From: Sporopachydermia quercuum | Lineage: Eukaryota | Length of the DNA: 64,000 nt | Reading direction: 5' to 3' | NCBI GenBank assembly: GCA_001599295.1 | Contig: BCGN01000003.1 | Span: 1,922,001-1,986,000 of the forward strand | Shown: positions 3,405-64,000 of the stretch, one piece after another | How the letters are laid out: each line of letters starts with the position of its first letter | Position numbering within the stretch: the stretch's first letter is position 1 | The notes under the pieces: model-generated | What the model saw: only the letters and a program-made list of their open reading frames with translations | The model's database searches: none | Told to the model about the DNA's origin: nothing | Translations under genes and position numbers: made by a program

Positions 3405-3690
3405 GTAAGTCAAATAAATCAAATCAAATCAAACAGTAATACGGTACAGTCAATGACTATCAAATCATTTACTCAGTTTATCCATCATGAGTCTTTTGTT
3501 CAAAGGATGATAACGAGTCTTAACGGCTCTATCTTATAAACCCAGCTCGTCGATTAATTTGTTTCACATGAGAAGAAAGTTTATATCTGAAAACACATCA
3601 GACTGATGATATGATAGCATGAGAAGCAGATAGTATTGCTACGATTGGCATAAGTTATAAGTTGACGTCTTGTTACTAACCTTTTCATAG
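3405..3690 (+). other. Spliceosomal intron of an apparently non-coding snoRNA host transcript
   Basis: GTAAGT donor at 3405, TACTAAC at 3674-3680, TAG ending 3690; same architecture as the coding introns in this window; encloses a C/D snoRNA; flanking exons have no recognisable protein. Confidence 0.7.
3499..3595 (+). ncRNA. snR69: Box C/D snoRNA, snR69-like (guides 25S rRNA Cm2948, S. cerevisiae numbering)
   Basis: Box C-like AGGATGA 3504-3510, box D CTGA 3587-3590, short terminal stem (TGTT/AACA), D' TCGA 3550-3553 preceded by TAAACCCAGCTC, complementary to conserved LSU rRNA GAGCUGGGUUUA; the D'+5 rule lands on the C. Ends approximate. Confidence 0.8.
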
Positions 3691-40660: not shown

Positions 40661-43461
40661 AGAGACAGTAGATACATCGGAACTGCAGATACCACAACAC
40701 TCAAATTTAATATCTATACCTTCTCTCCTTTATCCTTTTATACTTAAAAACCTTTGGGTTTCAACCACTCATCGAGATCCTGGGCACCAAGTGCTATAAG
40801 TTCATCAACCATTGTGAATATCTGTTTACGTAATGTAATACTTTGTCAAGTGCTACTGTTGATCAATCGTCAATTGCAGTTGTATGTAGTTCCTGCCAAC
40901 ATAAGCGCTTTGCGAGAATTTACTGAAATTACTGTACAACTCAAAAAATAACTAATTCAGAAAATTTTATCAACGGCAATAGGAGAAAACTGTTTCTTAC
41001 ATAGTTGAGATACGAATTCATTGTCTATTCTTTCTCTTCCCATGATGGAACCCCAATCTCAATTACCTTGAGTTATCAGGTTTTCTGTAGTTTATAAATA
41101 CTATATGAGTTTCCGTTGGGTTGCAGGAATAAATGTTAAAACTCATTCTATTTTCTCTGGTGGATTTCCGTAGTTTTATCATATCCTTGAATACGAAATG
41201 AAAGAATGAACTGAGATGAAGTGGCTAGTATTAAAGTTGAGTTGAGTTCTAAGACATCGGGTATTCTATTTAAGTTAGAATTTTCAATCCATCAACCTTA
41301 TTTGTGAACTTTAATAGGTGAAAATTGATTAGCCGCTTCTCTTGCGACAAAAAAAAACTGAAGATTGAAGTGTTCAATCTCAAGATATTTATTAATGACG
41401 TGTTTATTTCTCATTGTTGATGATTTCAGTAGAACTTAGAGTGGAACGCTTCTCAGTAAGGAGAGCGAAAACGGAGGTTTGATGATTTTTCTTACTGAAG
41501 AAGTTGGAGTTCAGGCGACAAAAGCAGAGGCTATGAAATTCTGTGGTCGCAATAGCTCTTGCTTTGCTAGTAATTCTGAGTAATATAAAACATTTTATCG
41601 TAGATCTCTTTGAAAATAAACTACTCCTATAGTTAGCTATTAGAAATTGAAATCTTAATGAATTTATCAAAGAGTTTTATTGAGGCATATCTGGAATTGT
41701 TGGTTAGCTAAAGGAGAGACAACGAGTAAACTTTTATACTANCTGAACTTCAAAACTTTTAAGGTTTAGGATAGAGTGTGAATATGTTGGTTGACAAACT
41801 TAAAAGTGACAGAGCTTCAGATGTATTCCTGAACTGTGAGAGCTCCCTGAAAATAAGTAATAACTGAATAGCTAAATACAAGGGAGAAAAACAGTGTTTT
41901 GACTTATGAGATATTCTCTAGTTCAACAGTCTGCATAGAAAAAAAGAAAAGAAAAACTCCTGAAGCTCTCTCAACCAGATCTTCCTAAGACATTGTCTTC
42001 CTATGAACACTGGAACCGGGATTAATCTCAAATTAAGCTACCGAGAGTCAAATGAGATGGAGGAGACGTGCAATGACGCATGGAATCAATTGCGTTCCGA
42101 GTCTCTTTCGTAGTAGCTTCTTTCGTAGTAACTTCTTCCGACGCTTTGTTACTCCATCGAATAGAAAAGTATATATCATCAGCAAGACAGAAAGGCTGAT
42201 TGTCAATAATAATAGTAAATAATAATAGGGTTGATTCTTGAACCAACTTCTTCAACAACTGCCACACAATAACTATTGAGCTTGNGGTCCTAGTCAACAT
42301 TACTGCCCGGTGAAGTTATCATATTGACTATTACATTATAATATTTATANTCTTAAGAATCAGATTTATTTAACCTAGAGCAATTCTTAGCTTTATATAG
42401 ATTTACTAGGATATAATATAANGCAGATTAGGTAGAAAACACTTCTGCTGACTCTGTCTTTTTTTATGATAAAGCCTCTTGGACTTTAAAACCCTTGTTA
42501 TCTCCTATTTGAATACCGTTAAATCATTGAATCTTCCACTGAAGCATTCTTTTTCTTTTTCTTTCTCTAAAACACCATTTTGGGAATTTACTAGTAGTTG
42601 AGTAGTTGAGCCAGGTCTGAGTATTTTCTCAATTCTCCTTCGCTTTCCTTGGTTGTCCTAACGCACCAACCTGATAACCTGCCACTTCAATGAATTACTA
42701 AAGTTATAGAAACGATACTCAGCCTTCTGTTCATATTCATATTGATGAGATCCACGNTTCTATTCCATTGTTTCTATAAATACCTATAATTCAAATAGAG
42801 CCTGANTTCAGATTAAAACTGGAAATTAAGCGCATGTCGTACTGAAATCTGATTCACTTTCACAATACGTTGGAAAAGCACTCTATAATTTCTTGTGAGC
42901 TTCCTCACCAGATATAGACTACTAGATAGTCGGAGCCATTACATGCTATGTTGTTCACCTAGAAGCAGAACCAGACTAGAGTATCAAAATCCTTTTATAG
43001 GAAGAATGTTTGATCTCAAGTGGATTCGTTATCAAAGGTGAACTAAAAGAAAGCAATATTAACGTAAAGCACCAACTGCTGGCAATGATAGGAATAAGTA
43101 GTATAATTCCACTTAGTCAGCAATCGGTCTCCCAACTTCTTGTTGTTATAATAAATAAATGCAANAATAGTAGCAATAGCTATGATAATAGTGGGAGTTG
43201 ACGTTCAGATAGTTAGATTAGCTTCTAGTAAGCTACTACTACACACATTACAATCTTATTTTCTTTTTAGTAAAGGAGATGTAACGCGCTATAACACCTT
43301 GAAATCAACAATAGTCGGAAACATCTTCAGTATCAGTATTGTAACTTCAAATCAAATAGGAGTTAATCCCACATGCTACTTGATTTCTCGATACAGCAAG
43401 CATTTGGTAAGTCATCTACAAACTTTGGTGCTTTTAATAAAACTCTGCTACTAGGAGTAGT

Positions 43462-43462
<1 letters not shown>

Positions 43463-43519
<57 letters not shown>
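43463..43519. repeat. (AGT)19 microsatellite just downstream of the WSS1 stop
   Basis: 57 nt of perfect trinucleotide repeat. Confidence 0.95.
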
Positions 43520-43534
43520 CAAAAGGTAGATTAA

Positions 43535-45626
43535 CTATGTAAGATCAATGATTTTATTGGTATTACCGTTAGCCGTATTTTTGTTGCTATTGCCAGAAAT
43601 GCTGACATTTCTTATCTTTGAATGCCTTATCTTGTAATCTTCTTCATCGTCACTGATAATTATGACACTGTTGTTGCTATTGCTATCATTTACCATACTC
43701 CTGTTGGTAAGTCTATCAACATTCTTCTGTTCATGCTTATTGGAACTGCTATCATGCTTATTCCTATTGCTCGGTTTACTCCCACTCCTATTTCTATTGA
43801 TATTGATATTGATATTGACATTGACATTGGCATTGCTATTGCCATTGTTATTGACGCCTGTACCATCGTTGTTCCTATTACTGTCATTGCTATTAGGCTT
43901 GTTCTTACTGCTCCAACCACGATCTTCAATAGTTGCATCATCATAATTGTCATTATCATTATTTTGCTTCCTCTTTATCTTATCCTTTGCATCCTCCTTG
44001 GGATTTCTCTCGTCAACGATCAAATCATCTTCATTTCCATCTTCCAGCCCCAGTCGTTCGTTATCAATGCCCATTTTAATTTCCTCGTTGTCGACACACC
44101 AAATTGAGTCCTTAAATCTTCTTTCTGCTGCTTCTCTTATCAGTTCTTTCAATGGTTTATCTCTATTCTTATTGCCGCTATTTTCACCATCTCCTCCTAG
44201 CTTAAAAGATCCTGANTGATANTTGATACTTCTTGCTTCAATTGACTTAATCATTCTCTCACGTAGATCGCTTATCGATATGTCATTCGTTCTTTTAAAC
44301 CTATTGATAGTGCTGTTGGATCCTAGGACATTCCCACTGGAAAACAAATCGTTACCAGGGAATCCAACGTTCGAAATGACAGCATTTTCGTATTCCTGTT
44401 TTAGATTATCAAGAAATGAATAAAACGATGCATTATGNGGTCCAATTTCTAGTTATATAGTTAGTATTAACTTGGAGAATTAATGGGATGACCGACCGAT
44501 GAATGCATGTAGATAATAGAAAGGCGCTGGAAATAAAGACAGTAAGCNATAAGGCATAAGAGAAAAGATGAAAACAAGTGTGAATGATACGACGATCGAC
44601 AGGACTGAAAGATACAGGCTGTGAGTGAATTGAACCGTCGTTTGAAATAACAGCATCAAAGAGAAAGAGATTCTTTGATCCTCTATAACATACTGTTATG
44701 AGTTAATCTGTTTGAACGTTAGTAACAATGGTAAAGGGAAGTGCTAGTACCTGTGATAATATTATGGCAATTGTATGCTGGTGATAATGATAATGGTTAT
44801 AATAAATAGAAATCCATTGACGTTTCTGACGTTTATTGCCAGCCCAGCTTTTCTGATGGTTGGCTTCGAAATGTCATAGTTTTTACAGTCGCTGTAGCTA
44901 TAATAAGGTGTAGCTGCTCTAAGACTGTTCAACGCTGTTCAACGCTGCTGAAGAGTTATAATCTTTTTGGTTGTTGCAAATATTCAAGCTATGACTATTC
45001 GTTTTTTTGCCATTGCAATTGTCATTGGAACTGGTATCAGAATCACCATGCTTAACAAATAGTGAAGCAAACTACTATAATCATCAGCCAAATCGCCATC
45101 AACTAAATCGTTTCATTGTATAGATCACATGTCATCTATCATGTATATTCAAGTCATACTCGGTCATACTCTTGTTTTCATATCATATCATTATTCATAT
45201 TATATCACTCTTGATATTTCTTAATACTTACTCGTGCAGCATAACACTCACGCAGTGTTCTAAATCATAAAACGAATTCTCATCAAAACTCTTCCTCAGC
45301 CGTAAACAAATCTTTCCTCCATGATTAACATTAAGTCCTAATAGATTAGCATTCTTAGGATAGAACTCACACAGGACCGTCACTTTGAAACCATGCTTTT
45401 TCATAATTGGTGATACTAGGTATCCTATTTTTAATAGCATGTATTGAGCTTCATCACGGTTTGGTTTTCTTTTCAACGCAGTTACTGTTTGGATGTAAGG
45501 TGATGAACTTGTAAGACTATTTATATAAGAAGATGAAAAGCCTGATGTTGAGGAGGAGGAAGAGTTTGAGAGGGAAGAGTTAGACGAGTTTGGTAGCTTT
45601 ACACGTTTANATCCTTTCACTACCAT
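43535..45626 (-). CDS. WSS1: WLM-domain metalloprotease Wss1, 3 exons: 45626-45232, 44707-44694 (14 nt), 44448-43535
   Basis: WLM motifs PIMKKHGFKV..LCEFYP...NLLGLNVNHGGKICLRLR; spliced HELTHNKIGPH zinc motif; FKLGG (SHP-like), LIREAAERR (VIM-like), SIM-like VIIISDDEED and terminal IIDLT. Phases of both introns consistent. Confidence 0.9.
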
Positions 45627-47265
45627 TTGGTTCAGTTTAGGAAAGAAGTGGGAACGCTGTTGTTCGTTTGGTAGATTTCGAACTTCTAAGTGCTTGGTGA
45701 NAGTAGATTCGATGACAGAAGAAGAAAGATTAGTAATAGAAGATAAGGAAAAGCGCAGTAAGAACGGAAACAAAAAAAAAGAAGGAAAAATAAAGTTTGT
45801 TTTTTAGTTGCTGGATTCGGTTTGTAAGTTAGGGTTTAATGTATATCTATGCAAGTTTATAAGTAATGTTATGAGTTCAGAGATGCGATGGAAAGTGGTA
45901 GAATGTATATCTTTGAAATATAAGGATTGATCGGATCAAAAAGCTGTAACCAACTGAGTTATATATTATTTCTACTGGAATGAACAGTTCTATTTAAACG
46001 CTGACACTTTTTGCTAGTGTAAATGAGGCAGTATTAGGGGAAGAAGCGAACACCTGCAGTTCCGGCACGTAAGTGCATGATAGTGCAGAACNTTGAACAA
46101 CCTTATTCTCAATATATTGCCTAAGAAGATACTCCATTCAACTCAACGATAATTGCAATGATCTTCAATGCAAAAGATTCGTTTCTGTTCTGCAATTATT
46201 CCAAAACTTCTCAAATAATTAATTCCATTAATGTGCCAAAAAGATCTTAAGCTAGAGGTACGATAAATCAAATCTTCCTCTTTTATCTTTGGACTTACAA
46301 TATTGAGTTTATATCAGCTTTTCAGTCTACATACTAGTGCATATACTTTAAAACCTTCGGGTAACGGTATGCAATAAAGTTCAAAACCTAGTACGAACTT
46401 TACTTGGATACTCTCTTCGAAAAAACCGTTCTAATCTGAGTGAAAATGAACAACTATCCCTTTTCTTCTCGCTTTTTCATTAATATCAAAAAGAATTTAA
46501 AAATCATAAGCTTCAAACTTTGCAATGGAATTGTTAAGCTTGGGTTTGAAGCCTGACTAATGTTATTCAACTCTTGAGCACAATTGGTTTCATGATTAGA
46601 CATGCTATCATAAAGCAGATCGAAAGACAATAAATCAATTGACTGGCTTTTAATATCAATGGTTGCTTTCTTTTCTTCTTTTATGCCTTTGTTATAACTT
46701 CTAATTGGGTTTTGAATTTTATATATGCTACTTCATATCATCATATCATTACCTTCTTTCATTGAATGTATCTGAACTGAANAAAGAGTAGCGCTTCATT
46801 AGATATACAATATTGTTATGCTCATTCTTTAGAAAATTTAATATTCATAATAGAATAACAGAAGTTGTCTGNTTTTGCTTACAACTAAAGCAGATTCTTT
46901 CTATTGGATGTTTCTNTCAGTTTATAGCATCTAGGTGTACTACTATGTTGACAGTATGCAACTATCTCTAATATTCTATCCCTGTATAAAGAATTTCAAC
47001 CTGCGGCCACNGTACTATATACGAACATATCAAAATTCTACTAAGTCCCAGATATTACTTTTATATATTCCTTAATTCTGGATTATCCGACACATTGTTC
47101 AGTTCCAAATAAAAGTNATTTGTAAAACAATAAACCTCTTCTCCCCAGTAATAATCTAAATACATAAACTACATTCTGTGATTTTTTTTTATATCAGATA
47201 TACAATTTATTGATCAACAAATAAAAATAAAAATAAAAATGAAAATAAGTGCTCCAGAGTCCTAT

Positions 47266-48738
47266 TTACACCTTCCCATCTACTGAACCCTTAACCTCCT
47301 CTACGCTACCTTCAGCACCACCAACTCTACCGTTACTCACACTTTCTCCTGATCCTTCGAAAAAAGAGATTCGGTTATAGCTGTCGCTAAATTCATCAAC
47401 AGTATCAGCTAGTTCAGCCAAATCCATTCCCATGTCTTCTTCATCTTCAGAGCATCTCATCTTACAGCCAGGAATCTTATCAATCAAGAAACATAAAGCG
47501 TAAGTAACAACAAAAGTCCAAGCAGTAATTGAAACAATAGCGGCAAGCTCATGGCCCATTTGAATCCAATTATGCCAAATCCAACCTCCTTTGATTTCAG
47601 TAACACCGTCCATACCTGCAATGTTAGGAGAAGCAAATACTGCTACGCATAGACCTCCAATAATACCACCAATACCGTGCAAGTTGAAGGAATAACTGAC
47701 ATCATCAATTCCAAGCCATTTGTTGCAATCATAAGTCAATCTGCAAACAGCAGCAGTAAATATAGCAGAAATAGCAGCTCCCCAAGTGGTAACAAAACCG
47801 CAAGAAGGTGTAATAGCAACTAAACCTGCAATAGCACCATCGCAAGCGGCGAACATTGACCATTTGCCTGTGATAAGTCTATCAATGACAGTGAAAGTGA
47901 AACAAGCAAAAGAGGCTGCAATATGAGTATTTGCCATAATATATCCAGTTCTAACATTGACTGATAACAGTGTACCTGAATTGAAGCATAGCCAAGCAAA
48001 CCAAATCAATGAAACACCAATCATGGTTGTCACAGGACTATGAGGTTTATATTTTGGCATTTTACCAGTTTCCTTCCACTCCTTTCTCTTACCTAAGAAC
48101 AAGGAGTATGCAAGGGAAGCAACACCACTGGCGATATGAACTGGTCCTCCACCAGCAAAATCCAAGGCTCCTAAAGTATATAACCAGCCGTTTCCATTCC
48201 AAGTCCAATAAGCAAATGGACAATAGCAAATAGTAGCCCAAGCAAAAACAAGCACCATAGAAGGTAAAACTCTACCTCTTTCACAGATAGCACCAGCAAA
48301 AATTTGGCAGGTAGCAACCGGGAAAAAGCAAGAGAATGTCCAATAGACAACTGCAGGAATAGATCCTCCTTCACCAAGAGGCTGTGTGCCCATATTCATC
48401 ATGGCTCCCATTCTAAAATTACCCAACATAACAGAAGCACTAGTATCGGAGCATGCAAGAGAGTAACCAAAAAGATACCATTGGATAGTGACAACAGCAG
48501 TTGTCATGTAAGATTGAAACATTACTGATAATGCTGATTTTCTCTTGATCATACCACCGTAGAACAAACCGATAGCAGGTGTAATAATGAAAACCGCGAC
48601 TGTACAGAACATAACGTAGCCGATATCAGCTGCGACAAAAGTTGAACTATCTTCAGCTAGAGTGTCTAAATTTCTGCTTGCTAATTCTTTTGCTCTGATC
48701 AGAGCTGCTGACCCGAGGCCAGAATTAGCGTAACCCAT
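47266..48738 (-). CDS. Ammonium transporter (Mep/Amt family)
   Basis: GLFYGG, GAICERGR, W..NGWL..LGALDFAGGGPVHIASG, WLCFNSG, GAIAGLVAITPSCG, LGIDDV....LHGIGG; 490 aa, highly hydrophobic. Confidence 0.95.
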   Translation of the reverse strand: MGYANSGLGSAALIRAKELASRNLDTLAEDSSTFVAADIGYVMFCTVAVFIITPAIGLFYGGMIKRKSALSVMFQSYMTTAVVTIQWYLFGYSLACSDTSASVMLGNFRMGAMMNMGTQPLGEGGSIPAVVYWTFSCFFPVATCQIFAGAICERGRVLPSMVLVFAWATICYCPFAYWTWNGNGWLYTLGALDFAGGGPVHIASGVASLAYSLFLGKRKEWKETGKMPKYKPHSPVTTMIGVSLIWFAWLCFNSGTLLSVNVRTGYIMANTHIAASFACFTFTVIDRLITGKWSMFAACDGAIAGLVAITPSCGFVTTWGAAISAIFTAAVCRLTYDCNKWLGIDDVSYSFNLHGIGGIIGGLCVAVFASPNIAGMDGVTEIKGGWIWHNWIQMGHELAAIVSITAWTFVVTYALCFLIDKIPGCKMRCSEDEEDMGMDLAELADTVDEFSDSYNRISFFEGSGESVSNGRVGGAEGSVEEVKGSVDGKV

Positions 48739-49159
48739 TGTTGGAAAGGAGGAAGGTGAGCTATTCTACTGTAAAGCGGTCTACTACGTGAAAAAATACT
48801 ACCTTCTTTAATTCTTTACTTCGGTTTTAAAGTAAGATTTTCTTAAGGATGTATATTACATAAAATGGGAATACTGACAGAATAGTAGTAAATTCGAAGT
48901 GGAAATCAAGATGTATTTATAATAAGAAGAATGATCATCAAACCATGTGTTTGGAAGATTTGAATATATTTGTACGTAAAGACCCTTTGCAAATGACTTG
49001 TACCCTTTTTTTGATTTTAACTTGCAGTATAATGAAAAATACAGGGATTTATTTCATGAGTGTCACTTAAGTACTTGATGTATATGACAACTGTTCAGTG
49101 ATGAAAAGCTTGAATCGGATATAATGGGTAGATTAGAAGCTCACATCCGTATAAGAAGA

Positions 49160-49760
49160 GATAGAAAGGATAAACCTTAATAAAGTTTAACAAATGTTGA
49201 GGAAGGAAAAATAGCTTATCTCAACAACTATTAACCTTAGTTTTATCTTCAACCTTCTGTAAGATCTGATAACACTCTCGGAGGTAAAAACGGCTATGAA
49301 ATACAATTTAAATGCCAAATTATATGCCAAAAAGAGCTAATCAGTTGTGATGCATCAATCAACATATAGTTAAAAAGGTATGGCTGCACGAGGATTGAGT
49401 AAGTATCCTGTCGAATCAATAGTTATCGGATGCTCCTCAGTAAGATATGCCCTACCATTTAATTTCCAATGCTTTCCTATGGTACTCATGTTAATTTCAG
49501 TAGCAGAATGATTATAGGGAAAACGTACATATTTTTTCAAACATATGATCAAGCTCATTTGATAACCAGTTTTTCTCGTTTAATTACTTCTTGGCTTCTC
49601 TTGTTTACTTCAATTCTCATTGAAACTTGATAAGAAGAGGAAAATAAAACGGTGAAAAATAAGGTTTGGGATATTTATTGCCTTAACCTGCGAAGAAATA
49701 CAGAGTTTCATAAATTAGTCAAACTTTAAGTTATCTATCTGTATATTTGAATTATCTGGT
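49160..49760. promoter_or_regulatory. GATAA/TTATC cluster upstream of the ammonium permease (putative nitrogen GATA-factor sites)
   Basis: About nine GATAA/TTATC occurrences in 600 nt, including CTTATC near 49215 and GATAAG near 49629. The AT-rich background weakens significance. Confidence 0.4.
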
Positions 49761-52700
49761 TCGATTAGATTTAATTCTAAGTAGAGTGATAGTGATGAGG
49801 TAGATGAATAATGAGAAAGATGATTCAATTAGCGCTTTCTTACTATTTTACTTAAGGGCGGTAATTTAATAGGAGTTAGTGGAATATGTAGGAACGGTTT
49901 CTTGCTCGAAGAAAAAAGTGGGTAATGACAGTGTACTGAAACAGATCTCGCAATGAATTATCGAAAGGCTCAAATCAAATGATACTTGTAGCAGATGCTA
50001 TTCTAACTAAAGAAACTTTCCGGGGTTTAAGGGGCAGAGAGAGTAAGTATTTGAACCACCTTTAGTATATAGATTCTTTCAGGAAGAGCTCTTGTCCAGA
50101 CGCTGACTCCTATTGATAGAAACTTTCCAAGTCAACTAGTGAAGTGATATGTGGATGACAACACTTTGCCATCGACTAAATGACTGATAGTCAGCAGGTA
50201 TTCACTGAAACTCAATTAGATACCTGTTACGCATAAATAAACTTCTTGTATTCTTTGAACATATCAAATAATCAAGTTATAATTACTTGTAATTTTATGA
50301 ATGGTCAGATTATACTTGTAGTTTGATGTTGTCTTTCTTTATGGTTTCCTTTAAGATTCTACTTCAAACTTAATCAAAGCTATATTGTTCCACCAGTTAG
50401 AATTTCGAGTATCTAAAACATACATAGTAATATTGGAGATAACTGCCATTTCCTACAATTACTCAGTAAGCAGTCTACCCTTGTAGAATACATCATTTCG
50501 GATAATTGCAACACCTCCACCTCAATGTGAAAGGGTTCTAGTGAAGGAAGAAACTCAGTCACTTGTATCTTTCTTGCTTACTGGATTCTCCAAGATCCGA
50601 GAAAGACTACAATAGATAACTTTGTTGAAAGTTATTTATGGTCTTATAATTCTCTAAACCATTTATCTTGAGTACAAGTAACTGGTGACTAACTATATTT
50701 TCACATTTCTACATGTTCCATACTCTTCTCGCAATGAATTGTTTCTTCTAATGCATAAAGATGACTCAAATTAATATGCGGTAAATTCTAGAATAATGAC
50801 AACTTATTTACCTTATGTAGTGAAAAAATGAGTCTTACGTTTCTGATATGATAGATAGTAGAGTACTTGTACAGAAAAGGGGAATTTATGATACTCTATA
50901 CTTTTAGAAATACAAATCAACATATATCTGTCTTGCTGCATTAGAAAGATAAATAGTTAAATCAAAAAAGAATGACAAATAAACCGGTATTAGCTCTCAG
51001 GCTTTTACTGTATTTGGTTTCTGTTGTTTTGTCAATCAAAATGATCAAACTATAAGGAGCAGAATCAGTAAAGGGCAAGCGTATCATAATTGAAACTGTT
51101 CAGCTCAACTAACCAAAGTTTACGAATAAGATAACTATTGAATAATTATGTATTTTGAAACTCTGATACACATGCCAAGAAGAAAAAAGTATTTTTGGTG
51201 ATAATTATTTATTCTTCATTTAATTGCTTTACAATTTGTACCTTCTTATCCAGCCAGTCCTTCTTCACAGAACCATTTCTCAGGTACACAGTTCCACCGT
51301 TAGCAATGCTTGATTCTTTTTCCTTTTTTTTTTGATGAACATCTTTAGATAACTCTAACTAAGTTTAACTTTCAACTATCAATGAAAACTGGATCAATAG
51401 CCAGTATTTATTCCTGATATAGAGCTTCATGAACCACACAAAATAGCTCCGTGGATGTTCTTTAATGACTAAATTGGCGAGCAGTTACGAAAACCGTTCT
51501 CTATAATCTTATTCCCCTTCCATTCTCACTCATAACTTATTCTTTCTCCACATTTTCGAAGACTTTTTGAGAACTAAGCAGGCTAAATGAATAAATAGTA
51601 AGATGTTTGGTGATAAGGAAGAAAAAGCCTATTTATTGTTCGCTTATGTTTTGAAGTGCTTGATGTTACCAAAATGACTCCGCTTTTGGATTATAAATCC
51701 CCAAACGTTAATATAAAGTTTGTCAAAAGATTGATATATAGAAACTTTAAACTATGTACGCATGAATGAAACTGTCAATAGAGAATATATATAGTCAACT
51801 AGTGAAATAAGAGTTGACGAGATATATAGGATCCAATATGCTATATATTCAAGGTTCAAGGTACATCCGGATATTGAAGGCAAAAGAGATACTGAGACAT
51901 TTACATTATCTGTAGCTATTTATATTGAGGAAGATCCATTTCATTAATTGCCGGTCGGTACCTTTGGATTGTTTATGTATATCTATCTATTGTTCGATAA
52001 AAAGATCCTCTTATTTCATTCCCGGAAGTACACCCCGTCAACGATGGTAGTTGTTGAAAAGAAAGCTTGTTTTCAAACCTTTTAATTAAGCTAAGAGGTC
52101 CTCCTACTTTACTTCTTGTTTGAAGAAATGTTGATCTGTTATGTAATGCTGGTCAAGTCTTGCAGCGGGCTCGAAAAGCCGAGGCGTCTAAAGTTGAATA
52201 ATCGATCACGTGAAGAATTCTACTTCAGGTAAAGCATTCAAACCATACTACGTTGAGACACGACTTCTGGAAATCATTTGCATACTTCTATACTGTGTAA
52301 ATTGCAATATTGTTCAAAAAAAAATTGCAAAAATAAAAAAGTTTGATACATTTCGGCTTTATGTATTTTTGAACATTGCGTTCGCAATTATCCGTGGTTT
52401 AGCTTTTGAAGTCCTTTGCCATATGTTTATTGAGACATTCAAAGCTTTGTACCTATGACCAGAATGAAAATCGTTTATTCGATCGATATTCTTCGTATTT
52501 TCTGATAACTATTCAAATATAAATGCCAAATTGTGAAATAGTACCTCAGTTTACGGCACAAAATGGTTACTATAAGTAGAAATTAATTTTTTTCTCTGCG
52601 ATCGCTACGACTTTAAATGGTTCCTGAAATTGAATGTTCAATTCAGTAGCAGTATGCACAATAACCTAGAAATAAACTTCAGAGAGGACTAATCAATCTT

Positions 52701-53373
52701 ACATAAGTGTGCATATAAATTTCCTATTAGGTAAATTATGTTTTCCTCTACAAATTTACATTTATTCCCCAGTATAACCTCTTCACTAAACTACTGAATT
52801 ACTTATGTCTGGGCTATTATATAATTCATTCTTGATTCAAACATTCTCCCACATTGAATTCAGATCGGATTCAATGTAATACTCTAGAAACTCAATTGCA
52901 AGACAAAAAATTATACTACTATTACGGTATATTTCTTCTCCACGTCAGAATTTACAGCCAATGTGTTTACGCGCTTAAAGTTCCTAGAAGCAAATCTCGA
53001 AGTGAAACTTTGCTAAAGAAGTGAAACCAGGACCTGGAATGAGATTATTGTTTCATAGCAAACAACAATGCCAAGTGCCTAATCCAACCTGTTCAAAAGA
53101 ACAAAATACGATACAGGATAAAAAAAAGAAATATTATTGCCACCACTAAATACAAATAAAATATCAATTGAGAAAAAAGAAACCAATGGTATACAAAAAG
53201 AGGGAAGAAAAAGCCCAAAGACTGTAATACATAAAGAAGCAAAGTGAGAAGTGTATGAGCTATCTACTATACCACACCCAGTACCCCCTCGCAGCTAACT
53301 AAACATTGTATCATAATCTAAGAAGCCCTCTTCCTTTTCAATCCCGTCGAATAAAATTTCTAATTCAAACAGA

Positions 53374-55551
53374 CTAAATAAAATCATGAGAAAGATAATA
53401 ATGGAATACTCTATCTTTGGCAACTATCTCTCCCATCTTGAGCCTACCAAATTTCCTTAGCTCTCCATATTCTTCCCAAACTGGAAAGTAATCATTCACT
53501 AACTTAACGTGGCCTTCAACCCTCAATCGTAACTGGTGTAATCTCAAGCAGTTAGTTATTATTAGTTCTCTTTTATCGTTATCCAAAGGTAATGGGACTT
53601 TCAATCTTTGGAAGGAGCCCTTAATTGATTCCATTGGTGAAGAATCGACTTTCTTCTTAGCTGCTAACAATGATTCACTGTATTCTTTTATCCGTCTAGA
53701 TTCCTTCTCATCGTCAGGAAGTTTTGTCGACTTGGTTATCGGAGTTTTTATTTGCTTGTATTTTGAGAAAGTTGAGTTGGCAATCAAGAACCATCCGTCG
53801 GGAATTTTATTCAAAGCTGGCAGACAGTACTTAGCAAGCTTTGAATTATGAACACTGCAGTTATGATTATAATTAGCATGCCATAACAGACCATCAGCAG
53901 AATAAATAAAAGCATGAGATGAGGGATTGGCAAAAATCCATCTACTGTAGTTTATTGCATCATCATCTTCATCAGGTGTAACTTTCTCTAATGGAAATCT
54001 TAGTCCATCAATGAATCCAAAGCAACCAACTACGCTAGGAAAATCATTGACAATCTTTCTTGCACTTTCGTTCATTTCACTTTCAGTGGGCCAAGTGATT
54101 TCTGTTTCTGGCATCATTAAAAGAGTTGCCTTCAGTATCTTCAAACTACTATAAATATGCTCTTTCAAACAAGCTATGTTAATATTGAACAAATTGGCTA
54201 AAAGTTCTTCTCTCATACTAGAACTAAGGTAGTGAAGCGCTAATGCCAAAGCAGTTGTAGGGTTTAATTTGTTTGCTTGATCAATGGTTGGAATTTCAGT
54301 TCTATCATAGTCATATGCAAATCCTGAATTAAGAATTTTGTAAAACAGCTCTTTGCTTAAACCTGTTAATACTATGGATGCCTCTTCAGTAAAAGCTGTA
54401 TCAAACAACCTTAACCAAGGATACATATTTGGTTGATCAGCATACTTGGTTTTCAATTTTGATCCTAGAGATAGATAGTCACTGTTTCCTGACCAAATAT
54501 TTGTCAAAGAATAAATTGCTGTTGAGTTTGAACTATTATTTCGAGGGAGTTTTGCTTTAGATATCTTATTTGGTCGTGAAAAGAAAGCTGTGTTGGAGCG
54601 GCCTAGAGCAACTCTTGACATGTTATTTCTATTAGACTGCTCAGTTGTAGTAGCAGACAGTGTAGCAACAGGATTAGAATTATAGTGGTTGAAATTAGAA
54701 CCATAATATTGGTTATCAACTGCTCGTGGACTTCCAAAAGAATTGTAAAAGTTAGCATGAGAACTTGCATAATACTGCTGCGGAGGTAAGGAAATCATAT
54801 TTGATATTTGGGGCTTTGGATAGTTAGAAGGTATGGGTGATCTTTCTGAGTATTGATAGATTTCATGATCAGATGGTGGTTCACTTGGTGACTCTGAAGG
54901 AACAAGAGTGCCAACACCTGTTAATTTTGTAGCACTATTGGAAGGTGAAATTAAATTAGATGATGTAGATACACTATTACTCAGAGATCTTTGTATATTG
55001 GAATGCTCCAGATGATATACCGATCCTGTTCTATTCATGTCTTGTCTGTCTTCATATTGTTGCTGTGTTTCTGGAACATATTGAAACGAGGATGGTGATA
55101 TTGTAGAAGGGATTGCTAAGGCCTCTCCATTGTGGGGGTGATCTTGTGATGCTAGTTTGGAAGAGTAATACCCACCTTCTGTTACTGTTATGTTGGCCGT
55201 GGTGACAGCATTACTTATATGTGCATGATTATATGCATCATGAGAATAGGATAACTTGTACTTTATGGATTGAGGTTTATACATCTGATTTGCTGCTGCA
55301 TAATACGACGACGACGATGATGATGTTTCTCCCTGAGTTAAAGTAGTTGCGGTATTGGGCAAGTTCAGCATGCTGTTTTCGGTTGATTTATCAGATAGAT
55401 GACTAGTAGTTACAATCGATTGTAATTGTTCTCCTGAGATGTTATCTTCGTGACCAGTATTACCGGGATATAATGAAGGATCATTTAGTGATAAATACGG
55501 ATCAAGATTAGGTGCGTAATCATCGTAATGTTGTTCCATAATGAAATTCAT
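53374..55551 (-). CDS. PIF/Harbinger (DDE_Tnp_4/HARBI1-like) transposase-derived protein with long low-complexity N-terminus, probably nuclease-dead
   Basis: First ATG 55551; C-terminal half has HTH-like LALALHYLSSSM...LANLFNI, ITWPT, GCFGFIDGLRFP (first D), SVHNSKLA, WFLIANSTF, IKGSFQRLKVPL, CLRLHQLRLR; N-terminal ~360 aa S/N/Y/P/Q-rich. Confidence 0.75.
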   Translation of the reverse strand: MNFIMEQHYDDYAPNLDPYLSLNDPSLYPGNTGHEDNISGEQLQSIVTTSHLSDKSTENSMLNLPNTATTLTQGETSSSSSSYYAAANQMYKPQSIKYKLSYSHDAYNHAHISNAVTTANITVTEGGYYSSKLASQDHPHNGEALAIPSTISPSSFQYVPETQQQYEDRQDMNRTGSVYHLEHSNIQRSLSNSVSTSSNLISPSNSATKLTGVGTLVPSESPSEPPSDHEIYQYSERSPIPSNYPKPQISNMISLPPQQYYASSHANFYNSFGSPRAVDNQYYGSNFNHYNSNPVATLSATTTEQSNRNNMSRVALGRSNTAFFSRPNKISKAKLPRNNSSNSTAIYSLTNIWSGNSDYLSLGSKLKTKYADQPNMYPWLRLFDTAFTEEASIVLTGLSKELFYKILNSGFAYDYDRTEIPTIDQANKLNPTTALALALHYLSSSMREELLANLFNINIACLKEHIYSSLKILKATLLMMPETEITWPTESEMNESARKIVNDFPSVVGCFGFIDGLRFPLEKVTPDEDDDAINYSRWIFANPSSHAFIYSADGLLWHANYNHNCSVHNSKLAKYCLPALNKIPDGWFLIANSTFSKYKQIKTPITKSTKLPDDEKESRRIKEYSESLLAAKKKVDSSPMESIKGSFQRLKVPLPLDNDKRELIITNCLRLHQLRLRVEGHVKLVNDYFPVWEEYGELRKFGRLKMGEIVAKDRVFHYYLSHDFI

Positions 55552-58500
55552 TTGTTCATTTCTTTTCTGGTTTTTTATGAAAACCAAAAGTTCCTGATTT
55601 TGGTATCGTTCTTTAGACAAGACAAACGATAACTGTAGTCTCAAAGAAAGGAGTGTAATAGTGACCTGATATGATATTGAAAACTGGATTCGATGTTTAA
55701 CTTGAGGAATATAGCTCCTTTGAAATACATCTCAGTATTCTCTTGTTTTTACCTTCCTATTGGTGAATGGATTTGGTAACGAGTAATGAGCTTTGAACCA
55801 CGGTTGCCATACGAATTCAATTGTTTTGGTTTAATTCTTTTCAACAATATTCTGCTCGCCTTTCTTCTTCCTTTGCTATTATTTGTCAATCCTCTACAAA
55901 GATTTTATACATTTATAGTTTCATAAGCAATCTCCAAGAGTAGTGTCTAGCTAAGCTGGTGTTACACTTTTAAGATGAAAGAGTCTAAGGGGTAGCAGAA
56001 AATTTCACCAATGATACTTGTAATCGATTCTTAGTAATTACTTACATCCATAAATACGAGCCAATTCTATTAAGAATTAGAAGAAATCAGAATGAAAGAA
56101 GACATTTATTGAAATCCAAGAAATGTACCTTTTCTGTCTCCAATTAACTCGATACTTTTGATAAGAGAAAAGAAGAGGATGAAAATACCGGCAACTGGTC
56201 AATTGAAAAAGTATATCAATTCCAATTCAATCACACTAGTTGTAGAGTTATCTTTCCGAGTTCAAAAAGAAACAAGATTGCCCATTTTGCTCACTTTCCG
56301 CTCTACTCTTGTACCACTTATTAGCATAAGCAAAAAACCTGATTGAATCAAAGTTGACGGATTAGGTTTAGCTTTATTTTTTAACATTTTACCTTTTATT
56401 GTCGTGATTAGGGAGAGGAAAAATAAGATTGATAATCTTAACTTTAAATTTTAATGAAATTAGTTGAAAATTAGCTTGAAGTTTAATAATGAGTTTCACT
56501 ACATTATGCCAACCATGCTTTTGGTATCTTACTATATGAGGTTAGTTACTTTCAATATTCAAGTATTCGGATAAACAAAAACAGCAAAAACTACAAACCA
56601 GAAAATATATATTAAGAAAACGATATTTTGTTAAGTTCCATTACTCTCAAATTTCAGTAAAGTTTTCTGAAATATAGAAAGCGTGACAGCGTGTATGTAA
56701 CCAAGATTCATAATCGTTCTTGGAATGTATGTCTCGTATGAAAAAGGTTGTATAGAATTTAGTCAGCCAATATGCACGGCAACATTAAGTTTCTTCAAAT
56801 CCAAGCTCAATGTTTAACTTTAATTATTAAACCTTAATGCTGAATACGTAGACTTAGGATATTCAGATCAACTACCAGGTTTGGTGAGTTGTTGATGTAC
56901 TGAATGCTTGAATCACCCTTTTCCATTTGTTACAACCGATAGATGATTTTGAAATTTGCTTCACTTTTCAACAAAAAAGGATGTTTTTGTTTATAATTGT
57001 GAGAGCACTTACATTTTTCTAGATATTTCATCATTGAGTTACTTAACATTCAGTCTTATTCGATGTACTTTTATTACGAAAAAGATATAGAGTGTGGTGT
57101 TTGAGAGTATCGGAAATTGAGAGTTGTTTCATTTGGAATAATACTTGGTTGAAATAATGCTATAACTTAAAAGTATAAATTAGCTCACCAATTAAGTTCA
57201 AAGGGTATTCTTATTTGGAAACCGAACTTCCACATGCAGAAAACTCTGTGTCAAAATGTTTCTAAAAAAACAAAGTTCTTCCTACATGATCTTGAACGAA
57301 GTCAATACCAGCTTCAGAGTAGAAACAATTCAAAAGCAATGCTATATAGTTCTGCAAGCTTCATGTATATGTCAGTAGGATCAAAATCCGGGAATTAATT
57401 AGTATGTCAAATAATATTCGATCTGGAAATAGAGTTCCCGTAGTTTGATTTACTGGAAGAAGAAATTCAAACAAAATAAGAAAAATTACCAAAAATCATA
57501 CAGGCAGCAAGAGTTCTGAAATTCAGTTAAGAGAATTGTTATTGATCTTTCCTTAATGTTGCGCTCGTAATTATTATTTACAGTCTTTTTTGGCGCCTGA
57601 AATATCGTCATAAGTTCAATTGATCGGTTATTTGAAACTAGGATGGAGAAATACTATGGAAGACTAAACTGAGGAATAGAAACGACAGTCGTAATCACAC
57701 TTGAAAGCTGAATATTGAATCAATGCAAGTAAGTGAGTATTATATTTTCACTATACCCGTCAGAAACCAAAGGAGTTAGTACTCCAGGCTACTCAGTATA
57801 TCAGTTTACTTGACACATTTTCATAGACACGACACTTATTGTATTAAGGGTTTCATGTACACTGCTATTTGCTATTACCTGTACGAACCTCATANATGGC
57901 TACATTTTTTAGAAGATAGCTCCATATTCTTTATCCTAGTTCTGATATAACATTTCAAATAATGAATTTTACTTTCCAAAGATCCAAGCCACGTTCGTGA
58001 GGGATTTCTACTGATGAATTTGAAAGCCGGATCTTAATGTTCTCGAAAGATAATCAGTAGTAACTTGATATTGTCAGAATAATTCTAGAATTATAATTTC
58101 AATGGAAGCATGGAATTCTGAGACAATTGGCTTCCATAATTTTATGGAACCACCAAACCTAGAACCAAAACGAGAAATATACTATTTTCTTTATCGTTCG
58201 TTTTCTTTTGGTTTGTTTAAGTTTAAGGTTTAAAGTTGGCAGATTAGATAAACTTTTTTTAACTGGCTATGAAGGAGTTTTGGTTATTCAAAACGAACTA
58301 TTAATCCGGTATTGGTTTAAAGTTCTAAATACACTATACTTTATATGGCTTGCTCTAGCAAACTGATGATAAATCCTTAATCTAATTCTAAATCTTTAAA
58401 GTTTGATGGAAGATTTAGAATAGTTTGGTTCCTAAACACATTGTCAAGTGTTCTTCTTGAACAAGAGAAGGACTGCACGTATGAAATATTCTTTTAGTAA

Positions 58501-61500
58501 ATTAACTTACTGACACACACAAGTTCTAGAAGTGGAGAAGGATGAACGTTAATAATAAAGAAATTGGAGTTTTGTTCTTTGCAATGTTGAAGCAAAGAAT
58601 CCTGATTTAAGGAACCATAAACCAATTGAGTTTTATTTCCATGAAACTTTTTGCTTGAATAATACCTGAGAGGCTAGCAATACACAAAATATGATTTCAA
58701 AATTGCTCGCCACATACACAAAGGAGTTGGCAGTAAGATATCTATTAATTACTTGATAAAAACTGTAAATGAATCAAAGTTTTATATTACTCTTACTTCT
58801 ATTAATTATTCAATGTCAAGAGAATCCCCATTTGCCTCGTACGGTCTCCTGCTCATAGATATAACTACATACGTATGCAATTCGGATCTATCTACCTCCT
58901 GTTTAGAAATCAACTTGGGAGAGAAATTTCAAATTCCGCCAGAAGATAGGGAAGTGAAATATAACAGATAATTTTATTCATGGAAGAGAAATTCTAATCT
59001 GTGTCCTTATTCGAACCTAATAGAAGATAGACAGACACATATCAATTTTAGAATGAAAAATTTACTCAGGAATAGGTCTGCCGACTTTTCCTAAGTCGGT
59101 GATTTCAGATTCATCATTTTTACGAGTTATTTGTTCTTTCAATAGGCAACCCAAGAGATTCTAGAGTACATACAAAAAAAATGAGTTGATTCTCCTCCTA
59201 GGGACCTTTCTAAATTAAAAGTTCCAAGAACTTTTATCATAAATAAATCATATATAATATGAGATTGCACTTAATGAAACTCATTCGAAGTTACCTTTCA
59301 CATACAGACACACATAAGAAGAATCTCATTCGCTAAGCTCCCCAACTTTCAAATTAACGTTATAGTTAGCTTGAGCTTTTACTGTCACAATGAATAAGTT
59401 TGAACCCCATTTGAGCACGTTCCAATTGGGTAAAAGGTTTTGAGTTTATCAAACTTTAATTGTCTCCCTTTACTCCTCTTTTTATTGGCGCCATTGCCAT
59501 TCCCTCATCAGAGGTTGTTATGAAATTGAATTCATGAATAGATTACTTTCTATCGTTTCAGCCCGTACTAAAAAGTTCATGTTATGGGAAAGGAAAAGCT
59601 ATGTATTGAGAATGTGATTATTGGGAATGCGATTATTGAGAATGTGATTTAATTTTACTCAGCCGTAAACTATACTTGTTTTGATTTGCTTCTTGAATTT
59701 CATGATGTCCCCCATAATTTCCAGAATTTGACAGGTGGAAAACTCAAGGAAAGTTGAATGAATGAAATTCTTAATGTTTACTTTTTTAGGTACACAACCA
59801 CAGGTAATCAAAACTCTTTTGTTGCCTACTGAAAGTAACAACCATCGTATTTTTACATTAAAAAGGATTATCTACAAAGTACCAAAACTGTATATTGCTT
59901 TGGTTCGGTAAATTATGCTTTTTTTACGGATTCTTTCTAGCTTGTTTGGAGAATTCGCTGACTTGAGTTCATTAAAATTACCAAAACATTTAAGCTGGAT
60001 AAGTAGGATGGCCACTAAGAATGTCAAATCTCAACACAAGTGTCGTATTTGTAGATGACTTAATTGAGAACAGTAGATTGACTCAAGAGACCCCGAAAAG
60101 AGCTTTATCTTCTTTTAATCTTTTATTTTTTTGTGCGTCGGAATTTGAAAGGAGAAGAGCAATTGATTTTAGAATAGAGTTAGTAACAACATAATATGTT
60201 ACTTCAATTGTGATTAATTTAGTAAATTTCAATTGCAAGTATCAGCTGAATTTATAAACTTAGTTTGACTTACATTTTGGGATCTCTAGAGAACAAAGAC
60301 CTTTCTTGCTGTCAAAGTGAAGATAGAAACGAAGATTACTAAACGGATGATTATAGCGAGTTTCTGGAAGCCTAAAGGTAAACCAAATTTTTATCAATAC
60401 CCTATTGATTGATTGCCTAGTAATTACGAGACAAAAATGAAACTAAGGCGCTAGTGCTCAATGTTTTATCTTTATTAGTAATTATTACATGTTTGCTCAA
60501 GCTGATAGCGAATTTTGCATTACAGGTAGTGCCAGATATTCATTCAACAGACTGAGATTTGTGCTCTCCGTATTTGATTAAATAAATTGTCAGGATGCTA
60601 GACTATTTGCTTTCAATAAATGTTTCTGAAATTTTAAATTGCTGAAAATATGTATAACTTATAATGGGGAACAATTCCGGGCAGCATTTATCGATAATCA
60701 AAGTAATAATAATTATTTCTGACAGAAACAACAAAACTCTTTTCTTCTTTTGTTTTCACCTTGAAATTTGAATTACCAATGGCTTAAACACACTAATAAT
60801 AAAAACAATGAATTTCTCAGCGGAGTTACGTTATTCCAAATGAGCGATGTAAGGGGAAAATACTTTTATTGTGTGGAGATAATGGACAGATTGAGCTGTC
60901 AAATATTGTTTGGCGATTCAATTCTATTGAATCTTCGAATCAAAACTACACATTGCTGTTTTAGAATGAAGATTAAAGTTAAAATTAAGATTTGGCTGTA
61001 ATTAGTGAAACGTTAATAAGGTTAGAAAATTAAATATAAAAGTTTCTTATTTTAATATTAGACTCAAATAGCAAAGTTTGGAAACCTTTTTACCTTAGTC
61101 GTATCAACAATGATAAAGGTATGCCAACTAATTTAAGTTAGAACTAGTCTGAATAATAATACCATTTTTGGCAGTTAGAAGGCTGAAACATGGTTGAAAT
61201 AGATATTGAAGCATAATCATCCTTTCACCAAAGTTTTAATATTAATAGGGTTATTAAATCAGTTAATCACACTTATATAGTAACGAATGTTTAACTTATG
61301 AATGGAATACAGAAAGAACCCGATTTTAGTAACGCTATAACAATCGTACTGGGAAACAAAGGTAACTGATTATTATGTAATAATCTGTTATATATTCCTT
61401 CTTGAGTAGTAAATATCTATTAAACAGCTTGTAGATCGTCTGAAAAACCGAGGCTATTTGAGATTAAATCTTGAAATAAGATGGTAGCTTTGTTTATATA

Positions 61501-64000
61501 TAATATATATTTAAATATGAGATGCACTCAGGACATGATACAACAAGGACTTATACGTTGTCTCTAGCTGTCTATCAATCGGTTGTGAACCATCAAATAT
61601 CATCAATTGTATAAAAGCAGTAAGAAGACAAAGAACGTCCTTCAATTCGACTTCATATAACTAAAACTTTTTATGCTTGTAGAATTATAGCATATTTCCT
61701 TGTAGATATTGTTCTTAAATTATTTTGGGTTTTTCCTTGATCTTATTGAGACCGATTTGAGCAATCTTGGAACCTTAACAAATCAAAAGATCATGATCTT
61801 AATGCTTATTCATGCATTTTCGGTGAAGGCGATTATTTGGACTTGAACTAAACTTGTTGAATTTTAATTAGTTGTTGAAATGTTCAGTTGTTCAAGCAGC
61901 TAGGGACAAGGTATGTGTGAAAATAAGTATTGAGTTCTTACCTGATGTATGTCATGTGATTGTTCAATCGAGCAATTGCTTGCAGAAAGAATGCCATCAC
62001 CTTTTACGAGAGGAAGGATTCTAAGTAATTTAACGATCTAATTATGTAATTAAAAAACAATTGTTTATTCTCTTTCCTTTTGCTGTGGTCATAATATTAC
62101 AGTGATATCCTAAAAAAGCAAATAATAAAATGTACCTCTGATCATCAAAAGCTTTAACTGGCTTCGGATCTGCTTATTACCAAAAGCTTATATTTTTAAT
62201 TGCCGCAATAGCATCTTAAGATTTGAACGAAATAAAAGTACAAATTATTTTGCAACTTATGATGAAACCTGATAACTTATTATTCACCTTCTATTGTTCC
62301 AGAGTAGGACAATATTTCATCCGACAAATGCTAAATCTGCATCATATGGAAGCTGAGTACCGGAAGGTAAACGTATAAGTTTAATGCTTTCTTTATAAAT
62401 TCCAATAAAGATATATCATTGAAATAATTGGCATTGCAAATGAGAAAGCGAGGATCTCAATCTTATATCAAAAAGGAAAGATCACTGCCACTGAGAACGT
62501 AAGAATTCACGGAGTTTTAGGGTCTAGGGTTTTCAATCTTCTCAACAGGTTTAATATTTGACTGATGGAAGTATATATTTTATCGATTGTGATGCAGTGT
62601 CACATGTAGTAATTAAAGTGATGACCTTCGCCTAGTAAACTAGCCGGTCTTTTGTTCGATTTGGACTTAAAGAGGAACTTATCGATATAAAGTTACTCCT
62701 GTTGTCATGGAAAAACTTGTTTCTTCACTAATCTCAAGTGTTAGGGCAAGTTATGTGCTAAGTATAAAACAAAGGCCCAATTATTTAAGCTGGAAACCCA
62801 GAGGAGTGAATCAAAGAAAATGGTATTCTTTGAAGACAGGAGATGAAGCATGTTGACCACCTTCATTAGCGGTTAGCTGTTGTCTTAAAAATTAACTGCC
62901 TCCATAATGGAAATGATCTCCATTACCGCTTCTGAATGTTAAACGAAATAATATGTTAAAACATAGGAACTCAAGATAACTGATTGTTCTTTGTTACAGA
63001 AAAAGGGGAAAAGACCAATCATTCCTCAAGAGACATTCTTGAGTAAGTAAAGCCATATCCATTACAGGCCATGCAATATCCAGATACTTAAATAAAGAAC
63101 AGATAGAAAGTCGTAGTGGTTATTAAATGAAGTATATAGGTTGATTGACTAGATGTTCAGATCTAAAGAAAAAGGTTTGAAGTACGTCATAGCAGCTTGT
63201 CTGAACAATGGCTATTATAAATATCATTACTAATCTTGTCAGCTTTGTTTCCTCCATGCAATGATCGTACAAATGGTGCGTCTATACTAAAATGACTATT
63301 TAGAAGCAATACATTACTTTAAGCATAAATAACATATTATTTGAGCCTGGCAGGGGTTATTTCACCTTTAGTTCCGAAATGAATGAGTAGATACCTTACA
63401 GTTGAAATAAGGCAAAAGGAGCTTTCTGCATCCTATCGAAAGCGTTTATGAGAGCCAGAACAGGAAGTATTAGAAAGGAGATAGATATTAATATTCTTGT
63501 TTATGAAGACCTAGGTGTAGATCCGGCTTTGAAATTTATCTTGGAATTGCTACTGATTTGAATTGCAAGTACCCTGGAACATTATTACCTGAACAATGGT
63601 ATTAACAGGTCTCTGACTTGACTTTTAATTAGGTGATTTTCGGCCCCATTCTTGAATTAAGTAATTGCATGATACTACAATGCTGTCAATATTTCAGTAG
63701 TATGCTCTACAATAGTTAGTTGACTGAAATATCTCAATCTGAAGTTAACAAACTATTTCATGCATCAATCTCTAGAACAGGAGAAATCAGAACTCAGCAT
63801 TATTAAAGAATAATACGACACCTTCACTTTATGATTATAAAAAAGAGAAGCTGCTTATATTCTTATATATTATCCTACAAGTTTAAGAAGGAAGCCAAAC
63901 CAAATCATTGTTGGCCTTCCTATTATTCTCTTACATTTTCAACGTCTAAGGCTTTGAAATGTTGATAATCCAGCTGGCCATATATGGTAAAATCACTACC

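Follow-up and report, generated by a model that had tools for sequence, protein, structure and literature searches.

A probably domesticated and catalytically inactive Harbinger transposase-derived gene in a Saccharomycotina yeast

Is the long open reading frame (ORF) near the end of the 64-kb stretch of contig BCGN01000003.1 studied here a gene that a yeast made out of a DNA transposon, or the remains of a transposon that never served its host? The ORF lies at 53374-55551 (-) of this stretch, which was analyzed at its whole length (hereafter the window, to which all positions refer), and consists of 725 codons and a TAG stop. An earlier interpretation made from the letters of the window (the sequence-only reading) had proposed a host-recruited Harbinger transposase with an inactivated center and a disordered N-terminus. 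The evidence below suggests that this Saccharomycotina yeast probably maintains the ORF by selection as a catalytically dead gene derived from a Harbinger transposase, comparable in kind to ALP1 and HDP1.

The frame itself is far longer than its surroundings would give by chance. It is the sole ATG-started ORF of at least 80 aa overlapping 51000-58000, and its stop-to-stop frame extends over 785 codons (53374-55731), whereas the 1766 stop-to-stop frames of the flanks have a mean of 13.3 codons and a maximum of 97. Given the composition of the flanks, a run of 725 open codons would arise with a probability of ~4e-26. The uninterrupted ORF of about 725 aa that had been reported is thus present and is exactly 725 aa long. 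The DNA around it has 32% G+C, and the G+C content of its third codon positions (GC3, 0.29) is like that of the AT-rich host. A comparison of synonymous codons with nine host ORFs did not discriminate, as the score of the ORF (-0.02 bits per codon) fell within the range of the host genes themselves (-0.03 to +0.08).

At the 5' end, an upstream ORF of three codons (ATG AAC AAA TGA; 55549-55560, -) has a stop that overlaps the first ATG of the Harbinger-derived ORF. A second in-frame ATG occurs at codon 5, and TATAAA-like sequences lie ~360 nt upstream.

Homology of the C-terminal ~350 residues to PIF/Harbinger (DDE_Tnp_4) transposases can be regarded as secure on the strength of several searches. 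When the C-terminal 385 aa were compared with 1.84 billion representatives in an exhaustive phmmer search, 537 matches reached E<=1e-3, with 160 at E<=1e-10 and 6 at E<=1e-30; 150 of the 537 were listed. The top match (E 2.3e-36, 33% identity) covers residues 38-379 of the 385-aa query, and PF13359 was present in 30 of 30 matches tested from among the 150 listed. A profile built from 150 homologs without the query scored the ORF with E 8.2e-78 (247.9 bits) at residues 373-719, corresponding to 53395-54435 (-). A protein-language-model search returned DDE_Tnp_4 clusters only, the best at 0.96 (204 of 256 features). The proposed descent from a PIF/Harbinger transposase is borne out by these matches.

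Fungal PIF/Harbinger transposases such as those of Sanghuangporus weigelae, Ceratobasidium, and Rhizoctonia solani share 26-33% identity with the ORF over ~340 residues and have the same domain order, with a helical, helix-turn-helix (HTH)-like part followed by the core that carries the catalytic Asp-Asp-Glu (DDE) triad. They differ in size and in their active sites. They are 300-480 aa long and have no counterpart of the long N-terminus of the ORF, and all nine positions of the DHDDRQEWG signature are found in 85 of the 150 listed matches, many of the others being truncated. The best 12 phmmer matches all retain the active site.

In trees of the family, the query falls in no supported clade, and in each of two trees it sits on a terminal branch roughly double the median length for the family (1.97 vs 0.87 and 2.01 vs 0.92). 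Its pairing with the homologs P0123 or P0078 was flagged as long-branch attraction, and for this reason no shared domesticated lineage is claimed. P0123 (455 aa) has the longest branch of the tree, with 8 of 9 active-site positions changed, and P0101 from Ramaria rubella carries the same two Asp-to-Asn changes as the ORF on a short branch. The degenerate centers of these two proteins may be independent inactivations or domestications.

The catalytic center of the ORF departs from the family at most of the positions that define it. Active-site columns were read from a 151-row alignment, and the counts given here are over filled rows. The first catalytic Asp is kept as D515 (GAT, 54007-54009, -) within GFIDG, a position that is D in 142 of 145 rows. 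The GSxHD motif (GSWHD) reads CSVHN and ends in N569 (AAT, 53845-53847, -), where 124 of 132 rows have D. The second catalytic Asp is replaced by N592 (AAC, 53776-53778, -; D in 123 of 129 rows), so that ADSAF becomes ANSTF. Further downstream, RQ..EWG is changed to KK..DSS (RQAAEWG to KKKVDSS; residues K632, K633, D636, S637, and S638; 53638-53658, -). Here the family has R in 119 of 121 rows at position 632 (K in the ORF), Q in 115 of 121 at 633 (K), E in 120 of 122 at the catalytic Glu column (D636), W in 116 of 122 at 637 (S), and G in 114 of 122 at 638 (S). Altogether, 7 of 9 near-invariant active-site positions are changed, and in place of an intact triad the ORF has D-N-D (D515, N592, D636). 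The assignment of the triad columns follows the general picture of the family and matches how PMC4671723 describes the triad.

All four motifs quoted in the sequence-only reading are present in the ORF and align to the family motifs, and its replacements of HD by HN and of the second Asp by Asn correspond to N569 and N592. Its statement that the Glu region is altered holds insofar as the region now reads KK..DSS, but the region is not simply erased, as the Glu column holds an Asp. With the triad and the HD, RQ, and WG positions all affected, the catalytic center appears to have been rebuilt and, as far as the alignment can tell, is almost certainly inactive, from which we infer that the protein no longer cuts DNA.

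These changes are unevenly spread over the protein. Among 45 columns conserved in at least 80% of homologs, the query keeps 30 and is thus changed at 33% of them. No change affects the 16 of these columns that run from the helical N-terminal part to the Tyr of YNGW, among them every conserved column of the HTH-like part (L435, L437, L439, L442, L451, F455, L473, and L477), and 12 of the 15 changes sit in the YNGW, N.PGS.HD, DSAF, and RQ..EWG motifs. Changes affect 12 of 22 active-site motif columns vs 3 of 23 others (Fisher p 0.0045, with a grouping of columns that was made after the data had been inspected). Because changes are concentrated in catalytic motifs and structural columns are spared, random decay is disfavored.

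The fold predicted for this part of the protein is that of a normal Harbinger-type transposase body, modeled as a helical HTH-like part and an RNase H-like core. AlphaFold2 run with a 95-row alignment gave a predicted local distance difference test score (pLDDT) of 87.2 and a predicted template modeling score of 0.88. The HTH-like subdomain (residues 399-481; 54109-54357, -) is modeled as helices with pLDDT >90, and the putative DDE core with the altered active site (residues 488-688; 53488-54090, -) is recognized by the order of its modeled strands and helices. In a structural search of 48161 chains, the best five matches were all DDE transposases with Z values that barely exceed the level deemed common in that search: Tn5 transposase (Z 8.4, root-mean-square deviation 6.5, 259 aligned residues), piggyBac (Z 8.3), ISCth4 (Z 7.2), Tn4430 TnpA (Z 7.2), and piggyBat (Z 6.2). 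Retroviral integrase cores followed at Z ~5.3, and model residues 59-141 weakly resembled sigma-factor region-4-type HTH domains (Z 3.9-4.0). Foldseek found no match in the PDB at E<=0.001, its weak matches being transposases, and no PDB chain matched the family profile by sequence at E<=1. The model thus lends moderate support to an architecture in which a helical part that may bind DNA leads into a DDE core of the RNase H-like type.

Upstream of the transposase part, residues 1-370 (54442-55551, -) form a low-complexity extension rich in S, N, T, Y, P, and Q, close to the ~360-aa S/N/Q/Y/P-rich N-terminus that had been described. It contains 65 S, 37 N, 28 T, 27 Y, and 25 P; S/T/N/Q/P/Y/G make up 58%, hydrophobic residues 18%, and charged residues 14%, compared with 33%, 31%, and 25% in the C-terminal part. 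On the basis of this composition, the extension is presumed to be disordered. Its 370 codons contain no stop, compared with 20-38 stops in each of the five alternative frames, and shuffling the bases of the region 20000 times never produced an open frame (mean 22.6 stops, minimum 8). As the frame is open far beyond chance, the N-terminal region is a maintained coding region. No Pfam family was found in residues 1-370, and an Atlas search with them returned no usable match.

How long such a frame would survive once selection had ceased was gauged with a neutral simulation of the 725-codon frame, which used the local base composition, considered substitutions only and ignored insertions and deletions, and assumed that the active-site changes postdate the end of selection as a transposase. 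With 1000 runs per level of amino-acid divergence, the frame was still open in 274 at 2%, in 30 at 5%, in 1 at 10%, and in none at 20% or 33%. Under these premises, neutral decay cannot yield the observed pattern of substitutions and keep the frame open. So much change without a single stop in 725 codons is consistent with continued selection on the integrity of the protein after it had ceased to be catalytic, although this does not imply that selection is acting at present.

Hallmarks of a mobile element were not found around the ORF. The best inverted local alignment between the two 3-kb flanks scores 28, a value reached by 81 of 100 shuffles and exceeded by unrelated control pairs (29-39), so the flank match is at chance level and the claim that terminal inverted repeats (TIRs) are missing stands within 3 kb on each side. 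One candidate pair (53146-53234 and 57571-57641) looked co-linear at first and was rejected, as nothing aligned beyond its 26-nt core, and the flanks revealed no boundary of an element. A tblastn search of the window with the query and 150 homologs yielded 155 segments inside the ORF and none outside it better than E 0.065, i.e., no further copies in the 64 kb. The region 50000-60000 is spanned by one ~44-kb contig in each of two sequencing runs from two studies, with no break and no difference, and this unbroken contig across the locus in both runs argues against near-identical repeats of the locus. Two additional runs from one of these studies had no match at 80% likeness.

A partner ORF was likewise not found. 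No Myb/SANT domain was found in 145 stop-to-stop frames of at least 45 aa (36.4-64 kb) or in the 13 larger ORFs of the window, in agreement with what the sequence-only reading had noted. According to PMC12730594, a Myb/SANT ORF is not present in all Harbinger lineages.

Taken as marks of a domesticated Harbinger gene, transposase descent, immobility, and an intact ORF are all found here. Several points nevertheless weigh against a gene maintained by selection, among them the premises of the simulation and the late grouping of columns given above. Among the 1.84 billion representatives, no orthologue was found, nor any relative with >33% identity. Of the 150 listed matches, 20 were looked up and 8 of these had a named organism, all 8 being Basidiomycota (Sanghuangporus, Ceratobasidium with three, Rhizoctonia with two, Ramaria, and Puccinia) and none coming from the yeast Ascoidea rubescens, to which the host is related (see below), or from another yeast. 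Annotated A. rubescens proteins are present in the searched library, and an annotated orthologue in that species appears unlikely from these matches. Since no orthologue was found and the named relatives are all Basidiomycota, the gene may have arrived fairly recently. The ORF stands alone in ~15 kb with no other ORF or family match, the wider stretch includes a decayed gene fragment, and selection may be weak in this part of the genome. Neither sequencing run differs from the window, and both may have been the source of the assembly, so that they offer neither polymorphism nor independent support.

Some of the searches behind the annotation add to this side of the balance. A word-indexed homologue search with residues 340-725 gave nothing, and a word-based search with residues 1-370 found no homologue at E<=0.01 among 5519 candidates. 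AlphaFold run on the single sequence gave an unusable model (pLDDT 36), and the confidence of the alignment-based model derives largely from the aligned homologs. The HMM search with PF13359 that had been proposed as a check failed, as Pfam scans gave no match to this family at E<=10, whether run on the entire protein, on its C-terminal 385 aa, or on the core of 211 aa. Probably the motifs lost from the ORF carry much of the signal of the PF13359 model, and because more sensitive searches establish the homology, the failed scan is not taken as evidence against it. The idea of host recruitment has only indirect support, from the intact frame and the non-neutral pattern of change, and the lack of an orthologue, or of any relative closer than 33% identity, speaks against it.

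The same observations could be read as a stranded Harbinger fossil, inherited vertically or acquired horizontally, which the host does not maintain by selection, whose frame is open just because it died recently, and which had its odd residues already in a non-autonomous source lineage. We consider this rather unlikely, although the missing orthologue, the eight organism-named relatives, all of them transposon proteins of Basidiomycota, and the isolation of the gene in a gene-free stretch near a decayed fragment are what it would lead one to expect, and inactive centers do occur elsewhere in the clade, as the short-branched P0101 with its two shared D-to-N changes illustrates. A recent insertion should still have TIRs, yet no inverted match of the 3-kb flanks rises above chance, and random decay would not be expected to concentrate changes in the catalytic motifs. 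Neutral simulation at 5% divergence left the frame open in just 30 of 1000 runs, and the ORF, with a terminal branch roughly double the median for the family, has accumulated much change with no stop in its 725 codons. The homology-free N-terminal 370 codons are open as well, and the GC3 of the ORF matches its AT-rich host.

Two other explanations were weighed against the maintained host gene. That the ORF is a still or recently mobile transposase, working through an unusual D-N-D center or mobilized in trans, seems very improbable. It would fit the retained first Asp, the conservative change of Glu to Asp, and the intact HTH-like subdomain, but the second catalytic Asp is an Asn, five further near-invariant active-site residues are changed, and there are no TIRs, no other copy in the window, and a locus that assembles as unique sequence in two runs. 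Mutation of a single residue of the triad drastically reduces transposition of PING (PMC4671723). A fusion in the manner of SETMAR, in which a pre-existing yeast gene represented by the N-terminal 370 residues captured a transposase domain and the function resides mainly in the N-terminal part, is suggested by the single uninterrupted frame that joins the two. We hold it to be improbable, as the N-terminal region has no homologue, Pfam family, or Atlas match in the searches described above, and its low-complexity make-up fits a de novo extension equally well.

If the ORF is indeed a maintained host gene, a fungal PIF/Harbinger transposase gene would have become a single-copy, immobile gene that was kept intact after the loss of DNA cleavage. 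Its product could act as a non-catalytic, DNA- or chromatin-associated adaptor, with the HTH subdomain and the dead core serving as a scaffold for binding or dimerization and the disordered S/N/T/Y/P/Q-rich N-terminus as an effector, activation, or condensation region. A Myb/SANT-type partner might be encoded elsewhere, as in the pairs ALP1-ALP2, HDP1-HDP2, and HARBI1-NAIF1. A specific role in chromatin or transcription as a scaffold or adaptor is the mechanism that we propose by analogy to these proteins, and we hold it to be less likely than not. A fuller version is more speculative still and, in our judgment, unlikely as it stands: the ORF would be a domesticated gene of Harbinger origin, the first in budding yeasts, and would encode a dead scaffold joined to a prion-like low-complexity region, which recognizes relic DNA resembling transposon ends, alone or with a Myb/SANT partner, and recruits the transcription or chromatin machinery. 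It would then be a transposon-born, lineage-specific regulator in a subphylum that is almost devoid of DNA transposons.

ALP1 provides the closest comparison in kind. Like the ORF as we read it, it is a single immobile gene derived from a Harbinger nuclease with a mutated triad, DGA replacing DDE in ALP1 (PMC4671723) and D-N-D in the ORF. A difference is that ALP1 is conserved across land plants, has been shown to be an accessory of Polycomb repressive complex 2 (PRC2), and has the Myb-derived ALP2 as its partner (PMC4671723 and PMC7282668), while no orthologue of the ORF was found. Budding yeasts are not known to have PRC2, and ALP1 is not known to have a low-complexity N-terminus of 370 residues. 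Vertebrate HARBI1 is a Harbinger transposase-derived host gene that is single copy and lacks TIRs, as the ORF probably is, with no further copy in the window and no TIRs within 3 kb. HARBI1 retains its catalytic residues, unlike the ORF. HARBI1 pairs with the Myb-derived NAIF1 (PMC4671723).

Domestication of PIF/Harbinger elements is recurrent, often involving the transposase together with a Myb-like protein, as in Drosophila DPLG, in HDP1/HDP2, and in PANDA (PMC9710019 and PMC9129072). In those cases, either purifying selection on orthologues or a phenotype supports domestication, whereas the ORF is known from a single sequence. In budding yeasts, domesticated DNA-transposon proteins have supplied key machinery, namely the hAT-derived Kat1 and the Mutator-like element (MULE)-derived alpha3 of Kluyveromyces lactis in mating-type switching (PMC5499181). 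These two proteins come from other superfamilies and drive that switching, and the ORF differs from them in being derived from Harbinger and in having lost its catalytic residues. The switching by Kat1 and alpha3 involves DNA cleavage.

In the literature covered, no Harbinger-derived gene was found in Saccharomycotina, in line with the earlier remark that no such gene of budding yeasts was known; the supplementary tables of PMC5751038 may list Harbinger copies per yeast genome. For Saccharomycetes, the DNA-transposon copies that carry a transposase are reported to number fewer than 20 and to belong to three to four superfamilies (PMC5751038). A catalytically dead domesticated Harbinger transposase is a known kind of gene, here proposed for a lineage with no case described in that literature, and the proposal, which rests on one sequence, is partly supported.

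Harbinger-derived proteins have recurrently been described as chromatin regulators in plants, insects, and vertebrates in the sources cited above. If the ORF is what we propose, Harbinger domestication would extend to budding yeasts, and the gene would provide a small example, amenable to genetics, of a pseudo-nuclease scaffold with a disordered region attached. Were it a lone fossil, it would still record a Harbinger invasion of this yeast lineage.

The host was placed with the help of a neighboring gene for an ammonium transporter (47266-48738, -). Its best named matches are two proteins of A. rubescens (72% and 68% identity), a member of the Saccharomycotina (Ascoideales), followed by proteins of Pichiales yeasts, and the host is accordingly, by these protein matches, a Saccharomycotina yeast related to Ascoidea, though with identities this low it is probably a species other than A. 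rubescens. Both CTG codons of the ammonium-transporter gene (38 of 40 and 22 of 33 filled rows) fall in columns dominated by Leu, as does codon 473 of the Harbinger-derived ORF (121 of 140 filled rows), one of its eight CTG codons. These columns fit a reading of CTG as Leu in the host, though very few codons are involved.

Between this gene and the end of the window, the segments 48800-53300 and 55800-64000 (~15 kb) contain no open frame >97 codons, Pfam match, tRNA, or Rfam family. Such an empty stretch around the ORF is unusual for a yeast with assemblies totaling ~17 Mb. The decayed alcohol dehydrogenase (ADH) copy mentioned in the sequence-only reading can be recognized as an ADH_zinc_N fragment at 40185-40406 (-), which scores E 1.2e-6, below the Pfam gathering score, and lies among broken frames.

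Several other features of the window were noted. A gene with a WLM domain (Wss1-like metalloprotease) is represented by two open frames at 43538-44452 and 45231-45803 (-), ~780 nt apart, with profile positions 3-90 in the upstream and 97-189 in the downstream frame. The split may stem from an intron or a problem in the assembly, or the gene may be a pseudogene. This stretch contains N letters and encodes an Asn/Asp-rich low-complexity tail. The window has 63 N letters, seen as X in translated frames at ~42.0-45.8 kb, and gene models at ~42000-45800 are unreliable because of them. A protein with two GATA zinc fingers and a Cys-rich linker between them is encoded at 34739-36316 (-), and we take it to resemble the iron-responsive repressors of the Sfu1/SreA/Fep1 type. 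Near the start of the window, the C/D-box small nucleolar RNA snR69 was identified at 3500-3592 (+) with 60.5 bits, the gathering score being 50.

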